Assembly: GCA_903813345.2 (NCBI GenBank)
Contig: CAIIXF020000001.1
Span: forward strand, 3,410,001 to 3,474,000
Length of the DNA stretch: 64,000 nt
Direction of reading: 5' to 3'
DNA from: Owenia fusiformis
Lineage: Eukaryota
Shown: positions 38,592-60,400 of the stretch, piece after piece
Layout: each line of letters opens with the position of its first letter
Position numbering within the stretch: the stretch's first letter is position 1
Program-made: the position numbers and the translations under genes
The notes under the pieces: generated by a model
What the model was told of the DNA's origin: nothing
Databases searched by the model: none
The model's input: only the letters and a program-made list of their open reading frames with translations

Positions 38592-39456
38592 TATTTGCTG
38601 TTTTAAGCTGTTTATCCGAGAAACCAGTCCAGTTAGGGTATAATAATATTATAAGCTACTAGCTTTTTATAAATGCTTCAAACAGTTCATTGTATTCATA
38701 ATGTTCTGGCCATATTTTAGAGCTACATTTCCAAAGTGACTAAATCACATTTCTGACCACATTCAGCCCATTACTATTGACCAGTTTGGTGTATTAACTC
38801 AAGGCTCACCGACACATTACCTTATATAGTCACAGCTCAAAGTCACTACCTTATATAGTCACACCACATCAAACTGAATCAATTTTGTCAGTTTGTCATA
38901 TTAATTGCACAGTGTGGCATATTATTCCCGTCACAACAGACCAGCCTGTCATCTTTACTATCAGGTAAATCAATAATACCAGTCTATCATATTGATTGAC
39001 CAGTCTACCATATTACCGAAATCGTAACAGTCCATTCTGTCATCTTAATTAACTATCAAGTCAATTATAAAACCAGTATGTCATATTAACTTACCAATGT
39101 CACCATATTTATGACCTCAGTCATAACTTGCATGTCACCTTAACCATGTCACCTTAACCAGTCAATTTATAACTTACCAATGCTCCCAATATGAACCAAC
39201 CACTTGGTAAAATAAGCCATTCAGTACGTCACATTAACTGATCCATCTTATCATACTAGTACCCAACCAGTGTGTTAAACAAGTCACCCATTTAGTCATA
39301 TTCTGAACTTTAAAACTAAATATGACTGAACTGACGTGTCTGATCAATCCGATACATTCATCTTGGGGGAAGCACCATAGTTGTAAAATCACATCACTCT
39401 GATCCTGTCTATCAACTTTGAGCTCTTTATCCAAGTAATACAGTTCAAATTCCAAA

Positions 39457-42400
39457 TCATGCTTCATTGTCATGTACAAAAAGCATCTCAGATTTGCCAA
39501 GTCCAGCTTCAATAAATGTGGGTGCTTCACTAGAGTTACACAGTAATGTTTTCCGTGGAAAGTTAGTCATTATTTGAAAGTCATCTGGAGCGTCATCGTG
39601 ACAGAGGACATAGTTGTATAAGCACTGAAATGACAGGGAATACTATGTTGTAATTAATGAAACTACAGGGATCACTGTGTTGTAAGCACTGAAACTACAA
39701 GGAACATTATGTTGTAATTAATGAAACTACAGGGATCACTGTGTTGTAAGCACTGAAACTACAGAGAACACTATGTTGTAAGCACTGAAACTACAGGGAA
39801 CACTATGTTGTAAGCACTGAAACTACAGGGAACACTATGTTGTAAGCACTGAAACTACAGGGAACACTATGTTGTAAGCACTGGAACTACAGGAAAAACT
39901 ATGTTGTAAGCACTGAAACCACAAAGAAAACTATGTTGTAAGCACTGAAACTACAAGGAACACTATGTTATAAGCACTGAAATAACAGGGAACACTATGT
40001 TGTAAGCACTGAAACTACAAGGAACACTATGTTATAAGCACTGAAATTACAGGGAACACTATGTTGTAAGCACTGAAACTACAAGGAACACTATGTTATA
40101 AGCACTGAAATTACAGGGAACACTATGTTATAAGCACTGAAACTACAAGGAACACTATGTTATAAGCACACTGAAACTACAAGGAACACTATGTTGTAAC
40201 ACTGAAACTGCAAGGGAACACTATGTTATAAGCACTGAAATAACAGGGAACACTATGTTGTAAGCACTGAAACTACAAGGAACACTATGTTATAAGCACT
40301 GAAACTACAAGGACACTATGTTATAAGCACACTGAAACTACAAGGAACACTATGTTGTAAGCACTGAAACTACAAGGAACACTATGTTATAAGCACACTG
40401 AAACTACAAGGAACACTATGTTATAAGCACTGAAAGTACAAGGAACACTTTGTTATAAGCACTGAAATTACAGGAAACACTATGTTGTAAGCACTGAAAC
40501 TACAAGGAACACTATGCTGTAAGCATTGAAACTACAAGGAACACTATGTTGTAAGCACTGAAACTACAAGGAACACTATGTTATAAGCACTGAAACTACA
40601 AGGAACACTATGTTATAAGCACTGAAATTACAGGGAACACTATGTTGTAAGCACTGAAACTACAAGGAACACTATGTTGTAAGCACTGAAACTACAAGGA
40701 ACACTATGTTATAAGCACTGAAATTACAGGGAACACTATGTTGTAAGCACTGAAACTACAAGGAACACTATGTTATAAGCACTGAAATTACAGGGAACAC
40801 TATGTTGTAAGCACTGAAACTACAAGGAACACTATGTTATAAGCACTGAAACTACAAGGAACACTATGTTGTAAGCACTGAAACTACAAGGAACACTATG
40901 TTATAAGCACTGAAATTACAGGGAACACTATGTTGTAAGCACTGAAACTACAAGGAACACTATGTTTTAAGCACTGAAATAACAGGGAACACTATGTTGT
41001 AAGCACTGAAACTACAAGGAACACTATGTTATAAGCACTGAAACTACAAGGAACACTATGTTATAAGCACACTGAAACTACAAGGAACACTATGTTGTAA
41101 GCACTGAAACTACAGGGAACACTATGTTGTAAGCACTGAAATAACAGGGAACACTATGTTATAAGCACTGAAACTACAAGGAACACTATGTTATAAGCAC
41201 ACTGAAACTACAAGGAACACTATGCTGTAAGCACTGAAACTACAAGGAACACTATGTTATAAGCACACTGAAACTACAAGGAACACTATGCTGTAAGCAC
41301 TGAAACTGCAAGGGAACACTATGTTGTAAGCACTGAAATAACAGGGAACACTATGTTGTAAGCACTGAAACTACAGGGAACACTATGTTGTAAGCACTGA
41401 AACTACAGGGAACACTATGTTGTAAGCACTGAAATAACAGGGAACACTATGTTATAAGCACTGAAACTACAAGGAACACTATGTTATAAGCACACTGAAA
41501 CTACAAGGAACACTATGTTATAAGCACTGAAACTGCAAGGGACACTATGTTGTAAGCACTGAAACTGCAAGGGAACACTATGTTGTAAGCACTGAAACAG
41601 AACACTATGTTGTAAACACTGAAACTACAGGGAACACTATGTTGTAAGCACTGAAATAACAGGGAACACTATGTTGTAAGCACTGAAACTACAGGGAACA
41701 CTATGTTGTAAGCACTGAAACTACAGGGAACACTATGTTATAAGCACACTGAAACTACAAGGACACTATGTTATAAGCACACTGAAACTACAAGGAACAC
41801 TATGTTGTAAGCACTGAAATAACAGGGAACACTATGTTGTGATCACTGAAACTACAAGGAACACTATGTTGTGATCACTTAAACTACAAGGAACACTATG
41901 TTGTAAGCACTGAAACTAAAGGGAACACTATGTTGTAAGCACTGAAACTACAGGGAACACTATGTTGTAAGCACTGAAATAACAGGGAACACTATGTTGT
42001 AAGCACTGAAACTACAGGGAACACTATGTTGTAAGCACTGAAACTACATGGAACACTATGTTGTATGCACTGAAACTACATAAACTACGGGGAACATTAT
42101 GTTGTTAGAACTGAATTTACAGAAATCTTTATTTTGGAAGCACTGATAATACATAACGCTATGTTGAAGCATTTTTGTTGAGTTAGTAGAAACACATTCA
42201 TGTTGTAATTAGGCGTTTAATCATAGGGAATGCTAAAAGCTGTCAAAACCTTAATCATAGGGAGCTCTACATTATTATAACGTATACTAGTACAAGAAAT
42301 ATTGATTGCAAGATGACTGCAATAAAGTCAAATAAACAAATAACATGTCTATATTTCTAACAATAACAATCAACCAGTGCAGTACTCATCTGAGAGCAGG

Positions 42401-45400
42401 CCATCTATAAGTCACCCAAATAATCATCTCTACATGTATATACAGGGTGGTCAAAAAAATGGAAACCCTGCATTTTCCTTATATCTTTGTCACTTTAAGG
42501 ATTTACTCCCTGATATTTCACACATTTGTACATCATTCAATTTCCTACCACCCTACCACATTTCATGACCATCAGACTGATAGTCACAATTTTACAGCAC
42601 TTTGAATAACATGCTTCAGATTTGACCATTATCGCGCTGTAGGCAAAACAGCACAGTTGTCAATGAGCCAAATGCATTCCTCAGCAGGTATGGCCTGAAT
42701 GACACGAATGGTCTCACTTTTAAGGTCTGCTATTGCCCTGAGGTCATTCTCATACACACTATCTTTGTCGTTTACCCACAAGTAGGGACATTTTAGACGA
42801 TGAGTACAGGTTTCCCCACAACGCAATAGTGGCCACTGGGCATGTTCTTTAAAGTACTGTAACATTGTGACTATCAATCTGATGGTCATGAAATAAGTAG
42901 GCCGGTAGCAAATTGAATGATGTACAAAAGTGTAAAATATCAGGGAGTTATTTTTTAAAATAACAAAGATACGAGGAAAATGGTAATAGGGTTTCCATTT
43001 TTTGACCACCCTGTAACTGCCAAGTGACTTACCTGCAAGGAATGATTTCTATTGAATCGTCTTTCAACACGTGACCCTGATGGCAGCTTCAGCAGTATCC
43101 TGATAGCATCGGGATCATCTGCAGCCGGCTCTTCTGGAATACTGCAACGTAACTCTGCTTTTTTCGCCTCAATTTCCTGTAAGTTAAACCCAGAATTAAA
43201 AAATACATAATAATGACATGCAATACAATGCTATATATCTACCAAAAATCTGGATAACCCCTAATTGAAAAGAAAATTCTAGAATGACAAGGTAAATTCG
43301 AAATTTTTCAACTGGACACAAACCACGAGCCTTACACACATGTACTGCTAGGTCTGGCCTATTTAAATCTAATAAACCAGCATCATCTATATAAACAGAG
43401 ATAATAGAACTCTGCGCTATAAAAATGCAAAATTCTGCAAGCCAAAATGTGAAATTCTGCAAAAATTCTGCATTTTATCAAAACATTTTTTTCAAAATAG
43501 TGTGAAATTCAAAATAAAGCTACCATATTTTTCTAATGTGTACATGTATTTGAACAACAGATATATTTAGTAACAATATAGAGATGAAATATTGGCCAGG
43601 AGCAATAGAAAACGCATAGGCTAAGATCGATAGAAATAATTTTAAGTAAAGATGACATGGTAATTGATCTGTGTTTATTTATTTTGTGACTCACACTAGG
43701 TGTTCCTTACAAAGCAACCTCAATAAATCGCTACAAAAGAGAGCAACAAATGATTCAAACGATCTACAAGGACCTAAAACAAGGCTAGGTAAGCTTTCAG
43801 TTCAAATTTTGTTCTCAAAGCATGAATTCCGCGAAAATCAACAGAAATTCTATATTCTGCAAATCGCAAAATTCTACATTTTTTTCTGCTGCACCGCGGA
43901 AAAACAGAATTCTAGTATAGTATCTCTGTATAAAGTACAAGTTTAGATTTGATAAATAAAGCACTTACTTTTCAGCAAGCTATTTATCAAAGCGTGATTA
44001 CATTCAAAACGTTGTAGTTCAGCACAAGAATGACTACAATTTAAACCACAATGGAAAATCATTATGTTTTAACATTATCACATGATTTAATATATCCGTT
44101 ATCAAACCTGTAATCTTTGCTCTGCTTCCTCTTGCTTTAGTTTCTCCTCTTCCTCTGCCTTCTCCACCATTTCTTGCTCTTCCTTCTTCTTACGAGCCTT
44201 AATAAACCAATAGAATATTAATACATTTACATCACATGGAGCACACTGTAAAATCATACAGCATTAACATGCAAAATGTCACCACCTGCAATTTGTCACA
44301 AACGCCAAAATGCAAGAAGCTGGCGAAGCTGTCACAAAATGTAAGCTATAACAATATGTCAGCACTTGTGGTGGTGACATACAAAACAAAGTTTAATATC
44401 TTCCTAAAATTGTGACATTTAGGTATAATGGTAACTTATGACTACATTTAATATGAGCTACCTTTTCTTGGTCTGCCTTTAGAGATTCTAGATAAGCTAC
44501 GTCCTGCTCCTGCCTTAGGCTCTGGTTGAAACTTCTCTCATCCCTAACAAATGAAATATATTATCTCATTTAACATAATACATGTTTCTTTACATACACT
44601 TTTAACACAAATTGTGTATTATATTTCTTTATTTTTCAATGCCTTAAAAGTTATTTAAAAAAAAATTGAAGCCGTTAAAACTTGGGGCCTTTTAGCTCCT
44701 AATCTTAAATTAAGACTCACCTATCGGCTCTAACTGCAACAAGGTAGCCTTCGTTATCATTCATGCATCTTGTCACCCTGGTTACTAACTGGGCTGCATC
44801 TATTGGACCTTCTAATCTTGCGACAACTGTCATTCTATTCTCACGTAACACTATTAGGGCCAGGAAGGGGTATGTGTTTTCTCGAAGTGCTTGAGATACT
44901 GAAACAGACACATTGATATGTTTGTTGTTCTTCATTGTGGTAAGTTTACATTAATCAACCCAGCCCATATGGGTATTAGGGTTTCCACGGTTCGCTATTT
45001 TCCCCACACATGTATATCAACCAATCATTAAACATGTATTGGGGAAAATTGGTAGAATAAACTAGAAAAACAGCAACTCAAAGGAGAAGCAAATCCAACC
45101 AAACAATTCTTATTATTGAATTTGGAGGCCATGAACATTTCTTCTTGATCAGAGATTGTTAACCTATAAAGCATTTTTATATAAATTATAACCAAAGCTG
45201 AAAAGACTAACAGACAGACAAATAAATGGATGGCTTTTCTATATCCCTATACAAACTTTGTTAACATGTTCACATTTCTAATCAAACAGCAACAAATTAC
45301 ACACCAACTGCAACAGACTAGCCATATTTTTGGGTAGGGACAACAAGGAGTCCAACTATGAATATAAGTGAACAATAAGTGATAACAATGTCACTTAGTA

Positions 45401-48400
45401 TGAGTTTCATAATTGAGTGAGAAAATTCTTTTCAGGAACCCATACCATCAACATTGCACTTGGTTACAACACGACTGTACAACAAGCACCTGTATGTAAT
45501 GCTAATGTACCACAAGCCCAAGCTGCTGGTGGCCCATATCTCCAATATGCAGAAAAACCAAAACTTTGAATAATCAAGGAACTTAATCATTGGACACAAA
45601 CAAAAAATGGAATCACTGATTTAAAAACATAAATTGTCGAAAAATAATTGTGGTCAATTAAATGATGGGAATATATACCAGGATACAGATATCGAAAATG
45701 ACATTCATGAAAGAAAAACATGAATTAATCTTACTTTTGTTTAAGGCTAAATATATGAGTGTTTAGATGATGTTGATATCCCAAAAACAAATGTCAGTAG
45801 GCTACATGTGATTGCTCAAAGTCCACACATAAGTGCTCTGAATGAAATGTTCAGGTATTTATGAATTGTGAACACAAACGCTTTGTAAATACCATAAAGA
45901 ATATATCGTCAAAAGGCGAATAATATAAAAAATCACAATAATAAAAGTTAATTTATCATTAACCAAAGCTCACACTACACTTGATTCTACAAAGAAATTT
46001 GACTTCCTGTTTCTACCGCACCTGAGCCTTGTTGCTTAAATACTGTATAACACGTTGATTGGGGGGGGGCAATTTTTGTGGATTTAGATATTTGTTTCTT
46101 TTCATGTATTTTTAAATCTTTTTTTCACAATGTAATGAACAATTTTAAATTCGCAGACTTACCAATTTCACACACATGCGAATATACGCGTACATGAATT
46201 AAATGTGTTTTACAGTAGCTTATTTGCATGACAACCATCCTAAACTTAAACCAATTGACAACATATTCACATAAATAAGAGATGTCAATATATCATTACT
46301 TCAATGTTAACAACAGTAGGTGATTCAAAGGGATCTAACCAGGAGAATAACAGGACGGTAAGCAAATTCTTTTCAGTAGCATTGATTTTTCTTTCATTCA
46401 TTACTTTTTGACTTGTCTTTTTCTTATTCCCGTTTTATTTAATACATATATATTGTAGAAGTATCAGAATATTTAATAACATAAACAGCTTATTTTGAAA
46501 AATAATTTTTAGCACATCAGGTAAAATCAATTCCTGGTTCAGTCAATTTCATTCTGAAAAATATTTGGCTGAGTGTTCCACGACTCATTCTTAAAATGGG
46601 GAGTACTTGAATGTCTCTTTGTAACAGCACACATAAATTGAGTGTGCATGTGAAAGATGATCAATTGTAATCACAAGTTAGTGTATTGTCATAGCTGATG
46701 ACATTGTTCAGCGTAGTTACTAAAGTGCCCATTGTTGCAACGAATCAAGAGAATTATTATATCTTAGGGAGTAAACATGCAGAACGAGGTTCAACAAAAC
46801 GTGGTTGGCTATCAGCCTGACCAGCAAGTTATTTACACCATTCAAGCCCCACGCCCCAGTGGTAGAGTTGAACAATTCAATGGAAAAGCAGCAACCATAA
46901 TAGGATCCATCATGATTGGGTTAGGGATCCTATCTATTATTCTAGGGGGTGTAGCTATTGTATTAAAGGTAGCATCATATTCCGTTGGTACAGGAATCTG
47001 GTGCGAACTTTGTGTAAGTACATAGTATATATTTTCAGTGCTACTAAATATATCTGACTGTCTTTTCCAATGATAGTTAAGTTTCCCTACACGAGAGCTT
47101 CATCTACAAATGCACAAGGCTGACACTCATATCAAACATCTGTTTGTCCATCCATTCGTTAGTGTGTCCAGGCAAAAACTCAAATACTGGTTGACAGATT
47201 TGGTTCAAATTTTATAGGCTTATGCTTTATGAGTGTAGGACCTCTGCTAGAAGAAATGTGGTCACTCGACCAGTATACGGATTTGGTTTATTTTCTGATA
47301 TATTTGTCAACCACAAATGGCGTGAGTGGGATTTTATTCATATTGGAATTTGGTAAAATGTAATCACGCCCGGTGATCGTGAATATGGGACGGAGGGGGG
47401 AGCAGGCAATTTCTGCTAGGAAATTCAACAAATCTGGAAGATTTATTTTTTCAAGAAAAAGTTTACTATTGAATTGATCAATGGATAGGCGCACGGTATG
47501 GTAGAATATGTTAGGTTTTCTGGGATTTTTTCTGAAACGATACGCATCTAAGGTATGAGATCTATTAAAAAAGCGCAAGGACATCAACAGGCACAAATCA
47601 ATGTTTTTGCTATAAATCAAGCAACAATGGTCTGGACGACCTGTAATAAATACTTGTAAGTGATGTTATCATAACTAAATTAATGTCATTGCTGAATTTA
47701 TAAAACAAGTTTCCATATGTGAAATAAAAAATAATCGAAAATAATGAATTTGGGACGGAGGGGGGGAGGGGATGGAGGGGGGGGGAGCAATATGTATATA
47801 AGACATGATTAGAGCTGTTTCGCGACTTTAAGTTCTTTTACTCCAAATATCCCCATTTTTCAGTCTCCAGGGGTATATCATCCAGTTTCTTACTAAGTTA
47901 ATGAGTTCATTTTTCAAATACAAGAATTCGTGTGAAGTTGTTTCACTTTATAGAATTATTACTCCCCCCCCTCCATCCCCTCCCCCCTCCGTCCCATTTT
48001 AATTATTTTCGATTATTTTTTATTTTACGTATGGAAACTTATTTTATAAATTCAGCAATGACATTAATTTAGTTATGATGACATCACTTACAAGTATTTA
48101 TTACAGGTCGTGTAGTCCATTGTTGCTTGATTTATAGCAAAAACTTTGACTTTTGCACGTTGGTTGCGTTGCGCCTTTTTTAATAGATCTTATATCTTAA
48201 GGATGCAGTACCAGGTCAGCGTAGAAAAAGTTCCAGACATTAGATTTTGCTCATATTTTTTACATTGTATCACTATGATGTTATCATCATCCAAGTGCAA
48301 TATGAAGAGGATTGACCGTCTGGTAATTACAAAATAAAAAAATTATTTTACCCACCCAAAATGAATCTTTTTACTTTTTTGAGTTAATAGAGCTGGCACC

Positions 48401-51400
48401 TTTCGAACCCTAGTTTTCGTATCCACTAATTGCGACTCAAGATCAAGTTTTCCCATAAAAGTGAAAGGGATAAAATATGCTTGATAAAATGTTTGCAATT
48501 TAATTCTTTTCTGGAAACACCATTATCGAAATAAACTATAATTTTTGAATAAGACTAAATGCGAAAATGACGTTCTTGGGAGCCAGCTTTCTCAAACCGG
48601 AAGTCAAACCTGCGCAAACAGACGTGAAAACCGACCCGGTACTGCATCCTTAAAAGAGTATCGGTTGAAAAATAATCCTAGAATACCTAACATATTTTAT
48701 CATACCGTGCGCTTATTCAATTTGCAATTCAATCGTAAACTCTGTCTTGAAAAAATAATTTTACCAGATTTGTTGAATTTTCTAGCGGAAATTGCCTGCT
48801 CCCCCCCTCCGTCCCATTTTCACGATCACCGGGCGTGGTAATATTAATGTAATAATAACTAGATTTGTGAAATTGAACAAGTTCAATTTAAGACTCCAGA
48901 TTTATTTTACCTAGATAGATCAGTAAAGAGCTGAGTAAGTAACTGAGTAATTAGCTGAGTAAGTACCTTAGTAGTAGTTGAGTAAGTAGCTGAGTAAGTA
49001 ACTGAGTAAAAAGCTGAGTAGGTAGCTGAGTAAGTAGCTGAGTAAGTACCTGAGTTAGTAGCTGAGTAAGTTGCTAAGTAAGTAATAACTAATTAAGTAA
49101 TTGAGTAAGTAGTCAAATAAGTAGCTGAGTAGGTAGAGAGGTAAAGTAGGGTATGCAGGAATTTTTGAAAATATATTTGATCAATCTGCATCGTGAATAC
49201 TGGCAAGTGCGAATTTCAAACTTCAAAATGGCGTAGAATCTAAACCGGGGGTCGGATTGCAATTTTTGCTACAAGTATACAAAATTTCGGAGAATATCAT
49301 TGAAGTGTAGTATCAGAATCGCAAAATAAGAAAAAACTATGAATTTGACCTAGATTTTTTAAACTAGGTATTTTGGTGTCCAAACTTTGAAGTAAAGTAG
49401 GTTTTGAGGTCCCATTCTTCTATGGGCTTTCATTATGTTTAGCTGTACTCATTCTATATCTCGTATTTTTACACTTCAAAAAATTATTCGGTCCCATTGA
49501 TTTAACATGGGGCACCAAATTTAGCGATTTTTGAGATCTCAAAACACCATAACTTCAGAACAAGTAGTCGGATCGAAATTTGGTTTGCAGATCTAGATTT
49601 CTGAGAAAATTCTACCCTTAATTCATAACTCATACGTTAAATTTGGAAAACTTTTTACTTTGGCCTACTTTTTGGACACCATATCTCAAAAGTGGGTCAA
49701 AATACTTTCTGACGGCAAAACGCTAACACTATAAGCATACTCTTTGCTACCTGTATACAAAATTTTAAATCAAATCATTTAAATATAATGTCAGAATCGC
49801 AAAAATAAGGGAAAACTATAAATTTGACCTAGATTTTGACCTAGGCATTTTGGTGTCCACATTTTGGAGCTAAGTAGCCTTCGAGGTCCCCTTCTTTAAT
49901 AGGCTTTCATTAAATTAAGCTGTACTCAGTCTATATCTTGTATTTTACACTTCAGAAAAATCTTTTTTCCCATTGCCATAACATGGGGCACCAAATTTAG
50001 CGATTTTTGAGCTATCAAAACGACATAAATTCCAAACCAAAAGCCGGATTGAAATTTGGTTTGCAGATTTGGATTCCTGAGAAAATTCTACCCTTAATTC
50101 ATAACTCATACGTTAAATTTGGAGAACTTTTTAGTTTGACCTACTTTTCGGACACCATATCTCAAAAGTGGGTCAAAATACTTCCTGACGGCAAAAGGCT
50201 AACACTATAAGCACACTCTTGGCTACATGTACACAAATTTTCGAAGAATATAATTAATCTGTAGTGTCAGAATCGCAAAAATAAGGAAAAACTTTGAATT
50301 TGACCTAGATTTTGACCTAGGCATTTTGGTGTCCAAATTTTTATGAAAAGAAGGTCTTGTGGTCCCTTTCTTTTATGGGCTTCCATTATGTTTAGCTGTG
50401 CTTAGTCTATATCTCGTATTTTACACTTCAAAAAAATATTTTTTCCCATTGAATTAACATGGGGCACCAAATTTAGCGATTTTTGAATTTTCAAAACGCC
50501 ATAACTTCTGAACCGGAAGTCAGATCGAAATTTGGTTTTCAGATTCGGAATCCTGAGAAAATTTCCCATAAGACTGATATCCTGGACATTGGATTCGGTG
50601 AAATTTTTTTTGGACCTCGTTTTCGGACACTGATATCTCGAAATCGGTTTGAGATACCAAAAAACTAAATCGACCCTAGGTTTTCTCCTTTTTTATGAGG
50701 AACACAATGAAAAAAACCAGGATCAAAAATATTGAAGGACGACCGAGATAATGGGAAAAAGTGACAAAGTACTGGATTTGACCTAGTTCTTGACCTTTGA
50801 CCTAGATAAAAATTTGACCTAATTTCCCATCATCCCAGATACATTCCCTAGTTGATCATGTAAGCAGCTTAAAGTTAGCTCTTCTAGTTGGTGAGAAATC
50901 TTGTAAGGAGGAAGAGGAAGAAAGAATAATAACTAGACTTTGGAAATTGAACAAGTTCAATTTCAGACTCCAGATTAAGACCTTTTTTAGCCGAGTCATC
51001 CAGAATAAGCCGAGTCATCCAGAATAAGCTGAGTCATCCAAAAAAAGATGGATGAATAAAATAGGAAGGTAGGATAGGATAGAATAGGAAGGAACGATAG
51101 GATAGAATAAGAAAGAAGGATAGGATAGAATAAGAAGAAAGGATATGATAGGATAGGATAGGAAGGAAAAGATACGAAGGAAGGATAGATAGGAAGGATA
51201 GGATAGGATCAGATAGGAAGGATGGATGAATTTTTCAATATTTTCTTCTCTACTCTTGACTTTCTATCAGGATACCATCAGATCGATTTCAAAACGCCAT
51301 AACTTCCAAACCGGCAGTCAGATCCAAATTTAGTTCGCAGATTCGGATTCCTGACAAAATTCTTCCCCTAATTCATAACTCATACGTTAAATTTGGAAAC

Positions 51401-54400: not shown

Positions 54401-57400
54401 TTAGATTTGATATTTGAACACCTTTTATTTTTCAGATCATCACATTTATGGTATTGTCAATTGTGACATCATGTGCCTGTCTCACTCTGTTGGGCCTCTC
54501 TGCAGTTGGACTGGCAAATGATGAGCTATTCCATTACGCTTGCAAAAAAAACTATTCTTGCTATTATGATAATCTGGTAGGCCTAATTTAATCCTCTATT
54601 GACAATTTGACCTGCACCATTTAAAGAAATGACACTCAATGTTCCTGATTTTACCAGAGCATTCTGCATAAAGATGATACAAATTATGCATATTGTGATG
54701 TTGCTTATTTCGCATCATAGTGTTTGACTAACACTGTGACATCATGTGGTTGGACATGGATGAAGCGTTGTGCAAACTGTTGAAACAGAAAAATTCTATA
54801 CCCAATATGTTAATCAGCTTTTTTATTGTGAAAGAACTTAGATTACATTATGTACAGGATGAAATGATATTTGCAGAGTTTTACTTGAGTTTTGGATATG
54901 TTTAGCAAATTGATCGAGTTGATTTTGAATTTGAGTTACATCTCTAGATGTCAAGCAAAATGAAGATTGTGGCCATGTTTGAATAGATTTCACTTGAGTG
55001 ATCTATTTGACCAGTGATGTTTTAAATTCAGGATGCAAGGGTTGCTACAAATGCATTACTGGTGGTGACATCTATCATCCAGGCAGCACTATGTATCACA
55101 TCCTCTGCCTATTGCTGTATGGCTGTCTGTTGTTGCAACAATGTAAGTGAATGATATGCTTTCACTTAGAATAATAAGAAACAATATAGCCCTTTTCAGG
55201 TAATCTGCTTGTTAAATCACACTATTAATTATAATCCTATAATATGATAAAAAAAGATATCAAGAGATGCAACCCTAATGTATGTATGTATGTATAATTT
55301 ATTTACCTCTTAAATAAAAGAGAGTTACATTCATAGGCATAACATATAATGGACTTTAAGTAAGATAATTAAAACATATTAAAAATTATGTGTTATATGA
55401 TAAAGGATAATTAATCTTTACCCAAGAGTAATTGTCTATGCCTGTGCAACTCGTACACGTGCATCGCTATAAGTAGCAAGGTCTCCTTATCATCATTGTA
55501 TACAATTCCTAAAATCACTTTAAGAGTAAAATCATCGTTCATTACATTTAGATTTCCCCTTGCTATATTGAGTAAGGGTTTTCTGACATTCGTAAAAGCT
55601 GGACAGGTAATCAGGAAATGCTTAACACTATCTCTTTCGTTAAGGTCACAAAAATTACAAATTTCTGATATAGGTGTGTCACCCTCACGTCGTCTACTAT
55701 TTACATCATATGTCGAGGTTAACAGCTTAACCATCATTTTACAGAGGTACATGAGATTGGGGTTTTCTTTAGCAATCACCCACCATACATTGGGTTTTAA
55801 AGTAGACAGCGATCCTGTCACCACATTTAGATTTTTATACATTGAAGACGATAGTACAGTACAAAAATTGTGAAATCTCTTGACACGTCCGTATACTACA
55901 ATTCTAAATTCTTGTTTGGATGGAATTTGAGCATTAAAAATCATGTCCTTAACATAGTCTGTGAGATTATAAAACAGAACCGTATCCCACATTTGAGCTA
56001 ATGGAGACTTCCTACCCTGATATGTTGATTTTAAATACATCATTCGTATAAGTCTTTCTAAACAAATAACCTTATATATACAACTTACAGGCAACCTTAA
56101 CAACATGTACAGAAACATTAATCTATCACAGTCAATTTTTGCTCTAACAGACATCCAACCAAGCAAACTTGTAGCAACAGGGTCCGGTGTATTCTTTGGC
56201 AGTGTCTGGATGCGTTTTCCGATCTCTTTGTGTAGTCCTTCCATGAGATTAATATCATTGTTTGTGTAAGGTATAACTGCGCACCCATACGTCAGAGTTG
56301 GGTAGGAGAAAGACCAATAAAGCTTCGATCCAAGCAGGGGGTGTATTCCACCACACCCATTGCCTAGGCCTAAGAGTGAACAAAATTTTCTCCTTGCACA
56401 GGATATTGCAGATTTTACATGTAAATTTGTACTACCTAGTGGTATTCCAACATGTTGAGCCGAGTTTACAATTTTAAGGGAACATTTACCAAGTTTGAAA
56501 TCTTGGGCAGCCCTTTTTCTTGGGCCAAAATACATAATGACACATTTTTCTGGGTGGAATTCAAATCTCCAGCGACGACTGTAATCATAAGCTATCTGAA
56601 GTAAGGTATTCATTTGATCATGCCCAGTGGTAATGATGGCAAGATCATCAGCGTATGCCGGACAACCTACAGGGTGTTCCCCAATTTTCGCAACCATTTG
56701 ACTGTCAACCAACTCGAGTAACAAGTCTGCCAAGAAAAACTGATACAAAATCATACTACAGACCCCACCTTGGTGGACTCCCCGGTGGACATTGAAAGAT
56801 TTTTGGTTTAAGATTCCACTAACAAAAACTTTACATTTGTATTTACAATAGGACTGGTACAAAATTCGCCACGCAAGACCATTAAAACCGTTTTGATATA
56901 GTTTCCAGAATAGACCGTCAATCCAGGTACCGTCGAAAGCTTTCTTAATGTCCATTAACGCCAATATGACACCATCCTTAATATTATGGGCAATGGTTTC
57001 CTGTAGTAACAATGATGTTTGAAGAGATGAGCAATTTTCAATAGATGCCCCCTGGAGCTGGGGAATTTTGCTCCTAAGCCGAGGCAGCATTCTTAACAGA
57101 ACAAGATTGTCAAATAATTTCCTTAAAATGCTCATGAGTGTTATTCCCCGATGATGATCCTTGTTAAGACAGTCTTTATTCCCAGATTTTAGTAAGGGAA
57201 TAAGAATACCAGTGCAAAAGTCTTCTGGGATGTACTCGCTGACTCGCATAGCATTAAAAAGTAAGGTTAATAACGAAGTCATACAATCACCACCGTATTT
57301 GATATGCTCAGCATTTAGCCCATCATGCCCGGCTGCCTTGTTGTTATTAAGTTTCATTATACAATCCTTCACTTCTCTCACTGTGAACTTCGTGTCAAGA

Positions 57401-60400
57401 ATACCATCATTGTTCAATAAAGATTCTGCATGCATGTTTTTCAAATCAGATACAACGATTTGCTCAAAATCTTGATCAAAAATATCCCTGTGATCATATG
57501 ATGCTAGTTTACTGAAGTATGATTGCCAATCATTATTTATATCAGTGGGATCAGTTAAAACATCACCAGAATCTGATCTGATAGACCCCGTTGACTTACT
57601 TGTACAATTTCTACTTTTATTCAAGAGGTACCAAAAAGTTCTTTGATCCATATCATTAGCATCATAAATATCATTAAGCTGCTTCTGTTCATAGTTAACA
57701 CGTGACTGATTAAATGCAGCTCGGAAGCCTTTCTTCGCTTCCTTGTAAGCTTTCCTGATAGGATCAGAAGAATCCCTTGGTCTCCCTGCTTTAGTCCATT
57801 TGTGCCAGGCTGCTTTTTGTTTTTTCTTAAGAATAGACAGATCATTGTTCCAAAATGGCTTCTGATGCTTTATAAATTTTTTCAAAGGAATGGCATCATC
57901 AGCTCTGCATTTAACAATTTCAATCAAGCGTTCAATGAAAATATCGATGTCCTTACCATCAAGTTTGCTATTGTCTGACATACTACTGATTAAAGGCTCC
58001 AAATCTGACTGCAAAGGGATTGTATATTTATCATTTACCTCATCACGAGACACCCTGTACCATGAGTAAACCTTCTTGACATATAGCGTTGAGCTTTTAA
58101 CATGTTTAATAGATGGCAGGTCGAAAACACTTTTAATTGCTAAATGGCCATAAGTTGGCGTATACGCGCTACATAAAACCCTACAACTAATTACACTCTC
58201 CAACATGGATTCAGAAATAACAATATGGTCAATATACGATTTATACCCAGTGGCTGATTCATATGTATAAATAGGCCCTTGTGTTTTGTTTTGCATATCG
58301 AGGGCAACTAATCCGTTACGTTGCATCATTTGGAACAATAGTTGACCGTTAAAACTATGATCAGCAGTAGAACGCCGTGTACCATACAAATTGCCCAAAT
58401 TGGCATTAAAATCGCCAATAATTACTATTTTAGCATCTGTTTGACAACTAATTACATATTCTTCCAATGCATTGAGCACGTCTTCAAAATTTTCATTTTT
58501 ACACCCAATCTGTGGCAAATATACAGAAAATATAAAAATTGGCACAGTTGCCTCGACCTTTACACATGCAATCGTAAACGTTTTTGAGGAAATTGGTCAC
58601 GCGTAGTATTCTGCTTTGAGGGGACCGTGCTTAATGTTTAAGCATAGAGCATTATTTATATTCGTTTTACAACATGTTAATATTCTTAGGTATCAAATAC
58701 ACAACATGGCCATATTATTGGACAAGGGCAACAAGGAGTCCTAGCAATGACCACAAGTGGGCCACAAGTGATTTATGTGGCTGGCTACCCTGCGTGCAGA
58801 GTCTAGTTAAACTACACTCTGCCTAGTAGAGACCATATTACAGTTTAGTGGCCCCGCCCCCACGACGGGTGCCGGTGACAGTTTGGGTAATAAATCACGT
58901 TTGACTTACGCGCTGACCTTTCTTCCACCAATCGGCGAGCTTGAAGAAACATACGCCAAATGCGTTCTAATTAAATATGCGCATGTCATTGGTCAATTTC
59001 GGGCTCAACGCTGACGTCAGAAGGAATAACCATATATAGAACGTCGGTCAAATTTGGCCGACGAACACTGATTGGCGCGGTGAGTTCACAGGTTTATTTT
59101 AGTTTGAAAGAGTGAAGACGAAGCTCTCTTTTAAGAAGTGAAGTCAAACGAATGCAAAGGGTAGTGGCTGGCAAGCCAAGCAATTCTACCCCAATGTCAC
59201 AGATGAATGCCACCAGCCAACCAGGTGATATACACAAATACCTTCCTTTAGCCAACTCAATGGAAAAACAATACTGTTTAGAGCTAGAATAGTAATAATA
59301 TACACACTTCAAAACATCTGAAATAAGCTATATTTAAATGCCACAAGCAAACCAGGTGACATACACAAACGCATTCCTTTAGCCACTTTACTTTGTTAGA
59401 ATTACCTTTACTTTCAATGCCAATTTGGCCAATGCCAAATGTCTATTTTGATATAAAAACTAAACCTAACGAACACATATGGCACTTGAAAAATAAATGC
59501 TTAAATCTTATTTCAACAAAAAGGAAATATATATCAACACCTTAAAAACAAAAGCCGCATACTTCAAAAATTTGAGGGCAACAGTAAAAACCAAAATAAA
59601 TTTCAGTCCATCTCAACAGTGACAGAGCAGCAAACAAAGGACCAGAATAGCAAAATTTGAAACAATGTAGCTTTTTTGATATAAAGTCTCATTAAATGAA
59701 ATTTGATGAGTAACTCTAGAATTAAATTATCTTTAAAATGAGATATGACACACTATGAAACATTAAGGACTTTTTGCTGTAGAGGGGAGTGCCGTGTTTT
59801 TTGACACCCTGTATATTCCAGTTTTTTATTTGGGTTTACCAATTTTGAAAATGAAGAAGGAGTCGCTTGTGTCCCAAATTTGCTTCTGGGGCATGAAACT
59901 GCTTTCTACCTTCAAATTATCTGAATTCAACGTATATAATATGTAAATGAAAAATCGCTTGAGGAAGAACACATTTAAGAATTTGCACTGAATAATATCA
60001 ATGTTTATTCCAGTTAGCATGATATTCATAGGATAACATGTAAAAAAAACGGTATTTTTGTAATCAGTGGTAAAATATGATATTTTTGTCTTATTTTCAC
60101 TTAACCATAGCATATGGTGTTTTAGCCATGACATACGGCGCTGTATGCTATGAATTATGGATTTTTGCTCGCCGGATCATTTGGAAAATTCGGATTAAAT
60201 CACTTAATTTCTGACGATTCTGAAGATGATTTTAACTATGGAACAAGACACAGGACGTGAACGAGATCACACCATCAAATAGGCAGACACTATGAACCAG
60301 GAAAACTGTTCTCCTATTATGTTTACAACTTTCAAGAACAAGAAAACAAGATGGCGCCCAAAAGTTAATCAGCTCTAGTACTTGATATCCTCTATCATGT

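Follow-up and report, generated by a model that had tools for sequence, protein, structure and literature searches.

The last intron of the FAF2 gene of the annelid Owenia fusiformis is largely occupied by a minisatellite, each unit of which repeats the gene's own terminal 3′ splice site. The array is genuine and confined to this locus, and we consider it, with a probability of roughly three in four, to be a tolerated "mirage" minisatellite whose last copy is the one spliced, chosen mainly by its position, and which has no function of its own. About 32 bp across the last intron-exon border of FAF2 were amplified in tandem, at this locus alone. Ordinary minisatellite turnover would then have produced the eroded edges, the homogeneous core and the higher-order repeats, and would have spread one substitution creating TGTAG to most of the units. 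Splicing to any in-register copy except the last would shift the frame and meet a stop; therefore, only alleles that splice the last copy keep full-length FAF2. The last copy would win mainly by position, through exon definition across the terminal exon, because it alone has a whole exon with enhancers and a 3′ end downstream; behind each decoy there would be about 10 exon-like bases before the repeat resumes. The extra AG of 53 units, together with the dead unit that adjoins the real site, may provide an added margin, which would not be required, and the array presumably leaves with the intron. The original prediction from this DNA, which proposed either selection on repeat variants or a length-dependent source of truncated isoforms, had named a neutral curiosity as its fallback, and it is this fallback that fits best. 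Positions below are those of the window, i.e., the whole stretch of 64,000 nt that was analysed.

The FAF2 locus and its acceptor array

FAF2 is a p97 adaptor and a conserved protein-quality-control gene. In Owenia fusiformis it lies on the minus strand, and splicing from 43033 to 39624 gives an open frame that is 100% identical to a database protein (P0001, named a UBX protein of Owenia fusiformis). All 13 exons of P0001 were placed by exact match in the window and the next 13 kb, and its alignment with 10 FAF2 homologues is colinear and gap-free at the 43033/39624 junction. The predicted junction is thus correct. The penultimate exon (43033-43176, residues 364-411) encodes the start of the UBX domain and matches P0001 exactly; its sense RNA depth is 23-32 in three runs, and its upstream junction was read 15, 15 and 32 times. 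It is followed by GTAAGT, the 5′ splice donor (43027-43032) of the 3408-nt last intron, which ends at 39625. The non-array 5′ part of this intron (42201-43032) includes a dispersed repeat, and reads from other loci pile up at about 42400-43030. The true 3′ splice site (39625-39646) has no AG within -14 to -3. Behind it comes the terminal coding exon (39457-39624, residues 412-466 and the stop), which is defined by its frame, its identity to P0001 and the homologue alignment and is present in a single copy in the genome. All these features are on the minus strand.

Several other features of the gene were noticed. One FAF2 acceptor (44198-44200, minus strand) is AAG and not YAG, its junction being backed by 19-24 reads per run. 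Residues 1-23 of P0001 form an N-terminal extension before the Met where the homologues begin and are possibly an annotation overrun. The 17.9-kb FAF2 intron at 62806-44900 contains a 1061-codon open stretch (55413-58596, minus strand), which by eye reads like a LINE endonuclease/reverse transcriptase. The same intron contains nested inverted repeats with arms of 44, 159, 217 and 40 nt (47357-48845), which resemble a foldback or MITE-type element enclosing another.

In the last intron, TRF reports a 32-bp unit in 76.5 copies with 90% matches (39619-42080), occupying most of the intron. A unit-by-unit split places 76 units upstream of the true junction (39647-42100, minus strand). They are 27-41 bp long, 62 of them 32 bp, and fall altogether into 30 distinct types, each with an intron tail, an acceptor and about 6-10 exon-derived bases. 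Among these units 73 have an AG, 72 have a YAG and 3 are AG-dead; as had been pointed out, all of them precede the real site in the transcript, the real site being the last copy. The 26-base pattern of the unit has 47 exact matches in the 500-Mb genome, all 47 inside the FAF2 array, and none in a reversed control; therefore, the unit is neither a dispersed satellite nor a product of chance. The split and this locus-specific unit bear out the view that the array was built from FAF2's own terminal acceptor. The further description of the unit as the acceptor plus the first exon bases holds for the acceptor, but the exact match with the exon head extends over only 6-7 bases, and the exact 12-base head occurs in none of the units. 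As judged from the letters, two spans are compatible with the unit: intron -22 to exon +12, less 2 bases, or intron -26 to exon +6.

The core units mostly show 0-4 differences from the consensus 32-mer and the 3′ edge units 5, and the 5′ edge is eroded. The eroded edge (42101-42200, minus strand) contains two degenerate junction copies beyond the 76 units, with acceptors ending at 42143 (TACTAAC at 42188-42182, 41 nt upstream) and 42111, and an AATAAA at 42133. At the 3′ edge, an AG-dead unit (CAG>CAT; 39711-39742, minus strand) is the first copy of a 64-bp higher-order duplication. Another AG-dead unit (39647-39678, minus strand) adjoins the real acceptor, and its altered bases form TTAAT, a candidate branch-point-like word with its A at -30. 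A further AG (39643-39644, minus strand), ending at 39643, precedes the real acceptor by 18 nt and follows the TTAAT word at a distance of about 10 nt; it is the only such site that, if used, would read through in frame, adding 6 residues inside the UBX domain. An RNA structure singling out the real site was sought and none was found beyond shuffles (z=0.77).

An assembly artefact, or an inflated array length, is very improbable. The assembly is haploid and the locus occurs in it in one copy, which would leave room for such an error, but the 30 distinct unit types, the ordered higher-order structure and the eroded edges are unlike assembler collapse or slippage. Moreover, the published Owenia reference, from which the window's assembly may differ, was made from long reads with an N50 of 26-31 kb (PMC9977687).

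The many tandem acceptors could also suggest that the array serves recursive (ratchet) splicing or that it gave birth to the intron, since mirages have been proposed as a source of new introns (in the account of PMC3087553). Either role can hardly be credited. AGGT, AGGC and GTRAG are all absent from 39625-42200; an acceptor AG directly before a donor GT, the hallmark of an array of recursive-splicing sites, does not occur (no AGGT and no GTRAG), and no donor would be regenerated. Because GTRAG is absent, the donor of the intron is not derived from the unit, and the array is preceded by this real donor and by about 830 bp of unrelated intron sequence, against the birth of the intron from it. 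The possibility of a coding or in-frame VNTR was ruled out, given the period of 32 and the stop within 45 codons after every in-register decoy.

Decoy acceptors at FAF2 and in fifteen other arrays

An extra AG is present within -14 to -3 (at -8/-7) in 53 of the 72 YAG units, and 19 of the 72 are clean. It had been noted from the start that most units carry this AG, that the true site lacks it and that a minority of units are free of it. The clean units are evenly spread (mean index 38 of 76) and seldom adjacent (1 pair vs 4.5 in shuffles); the rarity of adjacent clean units fits higher-order repeats. The extra AG had been expected to weaken the sites, and the counts support this. The 27 real acceptors examined (12 from FAF2 and 15 adjoining other arrays) all lack an AG within -14 to -3, whereas 102 of 400 random TTTCAG sites have one (Fisher p=0.0007). 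The same rule is described in human, where acceptors are silenced or diverted by an AG that precedes the acceptor AG by more than 5 nt, as reported for the sites treated in PMC9284458 and PMC7317903. The extra AG at -8/-7 probably weakens the 53 FAF2 units.

Whether decoys need to be weakened is a different question, on which the other arrays of the same contig are informative. Fifteen arrays repeating an acceptor were scored; the set consists of acceptor arrays only and is biased to conspicuous ones. Their real acceptors were assigned by reading frame. A Pfam search with 14 of the 15 exons behind the arrays gave matches in the expected frame for 10, with E<1e-7 for 6. Architecture and chromosome are the same as for FAF2, with the last unit as the real acceptor. 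The 15 arrays hold 458 decoys, as counted by an automatic picker, which gives 77 for FAF2, where the manual split gives 76, and which found 104 of the roughly 122 units of the longest array. There is an AG in 392 of these decoys, a clean YAG in 377 and an extra AG in 13; 153 of the 458, in 13 of the 15 arrays, are identical to their own real site from -14 to +3. FAF2 differs from the others in several ways: it has the shortest period and the smallest exon share of the 16, it is the only array with mostly extra-AG decoys, and its decoys all differ from the real site. In two other arrays, L012 2178-4550 (minus strand) and L016 1813-3190 (plus strand), about half of the decoys lack the AG itself (14/29 and 15/32), and this AG loss is a different route of decoy decay from that of FAF2.

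Clean decoys thus appear to be plainly tolerated in the Owenia genome. Weakening seems unnecessary: in the other arrays 377 of 458 decoys are clean, and in 153 the stretch from -14 to +3 is that of the real site. The selector is likely to be the position next to the real exon and not the sequence of the unit. The claim that selection on variants is needed is not supported: 19 clean decoys persist in FAF2, and in 15 of the 15 other arrays the decoys are mostly clean. The other 15 genes presumably also use their last copy, and exon definition would have to operate in Owenia. Reed and Maniatis in 1986 reportedly observed in globin that the exon sequence beside a duplicated acceptor decides its use.

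An alternative is that splicing filtered the repeat variants, so that the extra AG, the CAG>CAT change and the new branch point were favoured, since clean decoys would leak before a terminal exon. AG exclusion holds in Owenia, upstream AGs silence human acceptors (PMC9284458 and PMC7317903, for the cases described there), and 53 of 72 FAF2 YAG decoys break AG exclusion vs 13 of 458 elsewhere. Besides, the real FAF2 site is the only one of 77 in-register core sites that combines a clean tract with YTRAY at -15 to -45. The persistence of the 19 clean decoys, which have even been re-amplified in higher-order repeats, speaks against such filtering. So does array L017, which also precedes a stop-ending exon and in which 35 of 36 decoys are identical to the real site. 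The majority of extra-AG units is explained by one mutation and homogenisation as easily as by selection, so that it amounts to one event and not 53. For FAF2 taken by itself the branch-point explanation has its appeal, but real acceptors show no enrichment of YTRAY (10/27 vs 132/400 random sites, p=0.68). Killing of the nearest decoy is not a general rule either, a dead nearest decoy being present in 3 of 16 arrays, where 1.7 would be expected (p=0.22). Overall, we regard filtering by splicing as unlikely. Several observations from FAF2 are nevertheless counted against the tolerated mirage: it is the sole array of 16 with an extra-AG majority, it has no decoy identical to the real site, its last 8 units include no clean decoy, and the unit nearest to the real site is AG-dead and carries the YTRAY word. 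Local selection would also give the last two of these.

Consequences of decoy use and RNA evidence

The UBX domain matches Pfam at residues 384-461 of P0001, and the last-intron junction follows residue 411. In-register decoys would lead to a stop after 0-45 codons (median 20), confirming the early stop that had been foreseen, and would leave about a third of the domain; the anticipated truncation stands, but not its size, which had been put at half. A stop in the terminal exon could let a decoy-spliced mRNA escape junction-dependent decay. These considerations allow for low-rate decoy use that scales with copy number and yields FAF2 without two thirds of its UBX domain.

The stretch 42081-45000, outside the array, was covered with reads from three raw RNA-seq runs (6-12% of each) and with one contig run. 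Three upstream FAF2 junctions were read 9-32 times per run, and together with the sense depth over the donor exon they show that FAF2 is spliced and expressed. No read joining 43033 to 39624 is among the read ends listed, most of the listing being filled by reads of dispersed repeats; we count this against the tolerated mirage, and we infer the use of the last acceptor. In the contig run, which is guessed to be RNA and in which contigs drop rare forms, a 1591-nt contig covers the donor exon and continues for 441 nt beyond the donor. If these 441 nt are the true exon, a fraction of 0.59 of the words of 38900-39620 is expected, and the run contains 0.61; the continuation fits the real terminal exon. 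This limited RNA evidence points to splicing of the last, real copy. The database proteins that contain the donor exon amount to a single one (1 match among 57 candidates), which is full-length. No UBX-less isoform was seen in this database, a weak test given that it has just the full-length protein.

Two sense reads, one each in runs X17 and X19 (2 of the 3 raw runs), enter the 5′ edge of the array (42081-42178, minus strand), with 34 and 41 bases mapped and zero depth over the next 200 bp of unique intron. They adjoin the degenerate acceptor at 42143, the TACTAAC upstream of it and the AATAAA at 42133. They are counted against the tolerated mirage and, together with the stop within 45 codons after all in-register decoys, in favour of length-dependent leakage. 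However, their lengths do not fit a join of the donor to 42111, for which 33 bases are expected (35 with one mismatch). The truncated protein is absent from the database, and mirages are reported to be harmless to splicing in the genes described in PMC3087553 and PMC3902484. We regard leakage of this kind as quite unlikely.

A more comprehensive scenario would unite the two. Clean decoys would leak, owing to the terminal exon and the 6-10 exon bases per unit; the variant that breaks AG exclusion would be driven through the array; the neighbouring unit would change from decoy to branch point; the residual leak would be a decay-resistant, UBX-truncated FAF2 in proportion to the clean units; and Owenia may seed junction minisatellites above chance. 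We consider this scenario doubtful. If selection on variants or a length-dependent isoform were true, minisatellite turnover would be linked to splicing fidelity in FAF2, and if junctions were seeded above chance, Owenia would offer hundreds of natural experiments in acceptor choice. In any case, the FAF2 array is a natural test of 3′ splice-site choice, with about 70 look-alike acceptors transcribed first and in two sequence classes. The extra-AG and clean classes could separate the effects of position from those of AG exclusion in an invertebrate.

The wider genome and known systems

A blind sample of 400 kb (ten 40-kb blocks from contigs C2-C11) contains 43 tandem arrays. Twenty were inspected by eye, after 23 had been set aside (those with periods above 125 bp, every array of C11 and C6, and one of low complexity); 2 of the 20 are acceptor-array-like and up to 3 more are junction-adjacent. 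Neither of the 2 candidate exons of the sample matches Pfam (0/2). On contig C4, a 108-bp x 12 array (L050 8075-9372, minus strand) has TTTTCAG-like acceptors per unit and one open frame of 487 codons with no Pfam match, and it could be a coding VNTR or an in-frame mirage. On contig C9, an 84-bp x 5 array (L069 2439-2857, plus strand) has an acceptor-like site per unit followed by a 47-codon open frame, again with no Pfam match. On contig C8, a GT-rich 56-bp array (L064 8719-9171, plus strand) sets in precisely at the donor that follows a homeobox-like exon, and GTGAG words recur in it. A 145-bp satellite that to the eye resembles a tRNA occupies tens of kb on each of the contigs C2 and C11 (blocks L040-L043 and L076-L079). 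A genome-wide count of triple TTTTCAG gave 1705 matches vs 298 in a reversed control, but many of the 100 matches listed belong to dispersed repeat families and the count was rejected as unusable. Four locus-like tandem arrays on contig C1 (266792-267185, 6254602-6254985, 20247310-20247610 and 27823206-27825082) have TTTTCAG in each unit with periods of 43-49 and are candidates for more acceptor mirages.

A literature search, largely confined to papers free of subscription, brought up none that deals with arrays of this kind in Owenia or FAF2. Related systems have been described elsewhere. In human, acceptor silencing by AG exclusion works through an AG that is separated from the acceptor's own AG by more than 5 nt on its upstream side, a position matched by the extra AG of the 53 FAF2 units. 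The human cases, as presented in PMC9284458 and PMC7317903, are single-site variants, whereas on the annelid side there is the depletion count of 0/27 vs 102/400.

Intron 7 of human F7 carries a 37-bp VNTR with identical donor copies that are functional but silent by position, according to PMC1557585. Like the FAF2 array, it is a boundary-spanning minisatellite that reiterates a splice site and whose exon-adjoining copy is the real one. As described in that account, it differs in being on the donor side, in having 5-9 identical copies of which the first transcribed is used, and in that silence was tested with 50 constructs. In FAF2 the acceptor side is repeated, the real copy is transcribed last, and the silence of the decoys is a prediction.

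The closest parallel is found in the mirages of amphioxus, tandem repeats spanning exon-intron boundaries that are described for Adh3, troponin C, the globins BflGb6 and BflGb9, and PGBD5 (PMC3087553, PMC3902484). These consist of copies of the intron 3′ end and the exon start, with splice signals in many but not all copies (PMC3087553). They have homogenised cores, divergent edges and unstable lengths, and leave splicing undisturbed, according to PMC3087553, with which the account in PMC3902484 agrees. The FAF2 array shares four structural features of this class. Its unit spans the exon-intron boundary of the host gene, as the tandem intron 3′ end and exon 5′ start do in BflGb6, and is locally derived (47/47 exact matches in the array). 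The splice signal is kept in many, not all, copies (an AG in 73/76), the core evolves in concert, and the edge units are divergent and escape homogenisation, as the amphioxus accounts also describe. The length of the FAF2 unit lies within the 10-72 bp given for Adh3. On the other hand, the host is an annelid, and there are 76 copies vs the 2-7 given for the globin and PGBD5 cases. The FAF2 array has only 6-10 exon-derived bases per unit, precedes a terminal exon and consists mostly of extra-AG copies. Length instability and normal splicing are reported as shown for amphioxus; for FAF2, normal splicing has indirect support. Taken together, the FAF2 array belongs to a known type of repeat, of which it is a long case and one of many in this genome; it is most likely tolerated and functionless.
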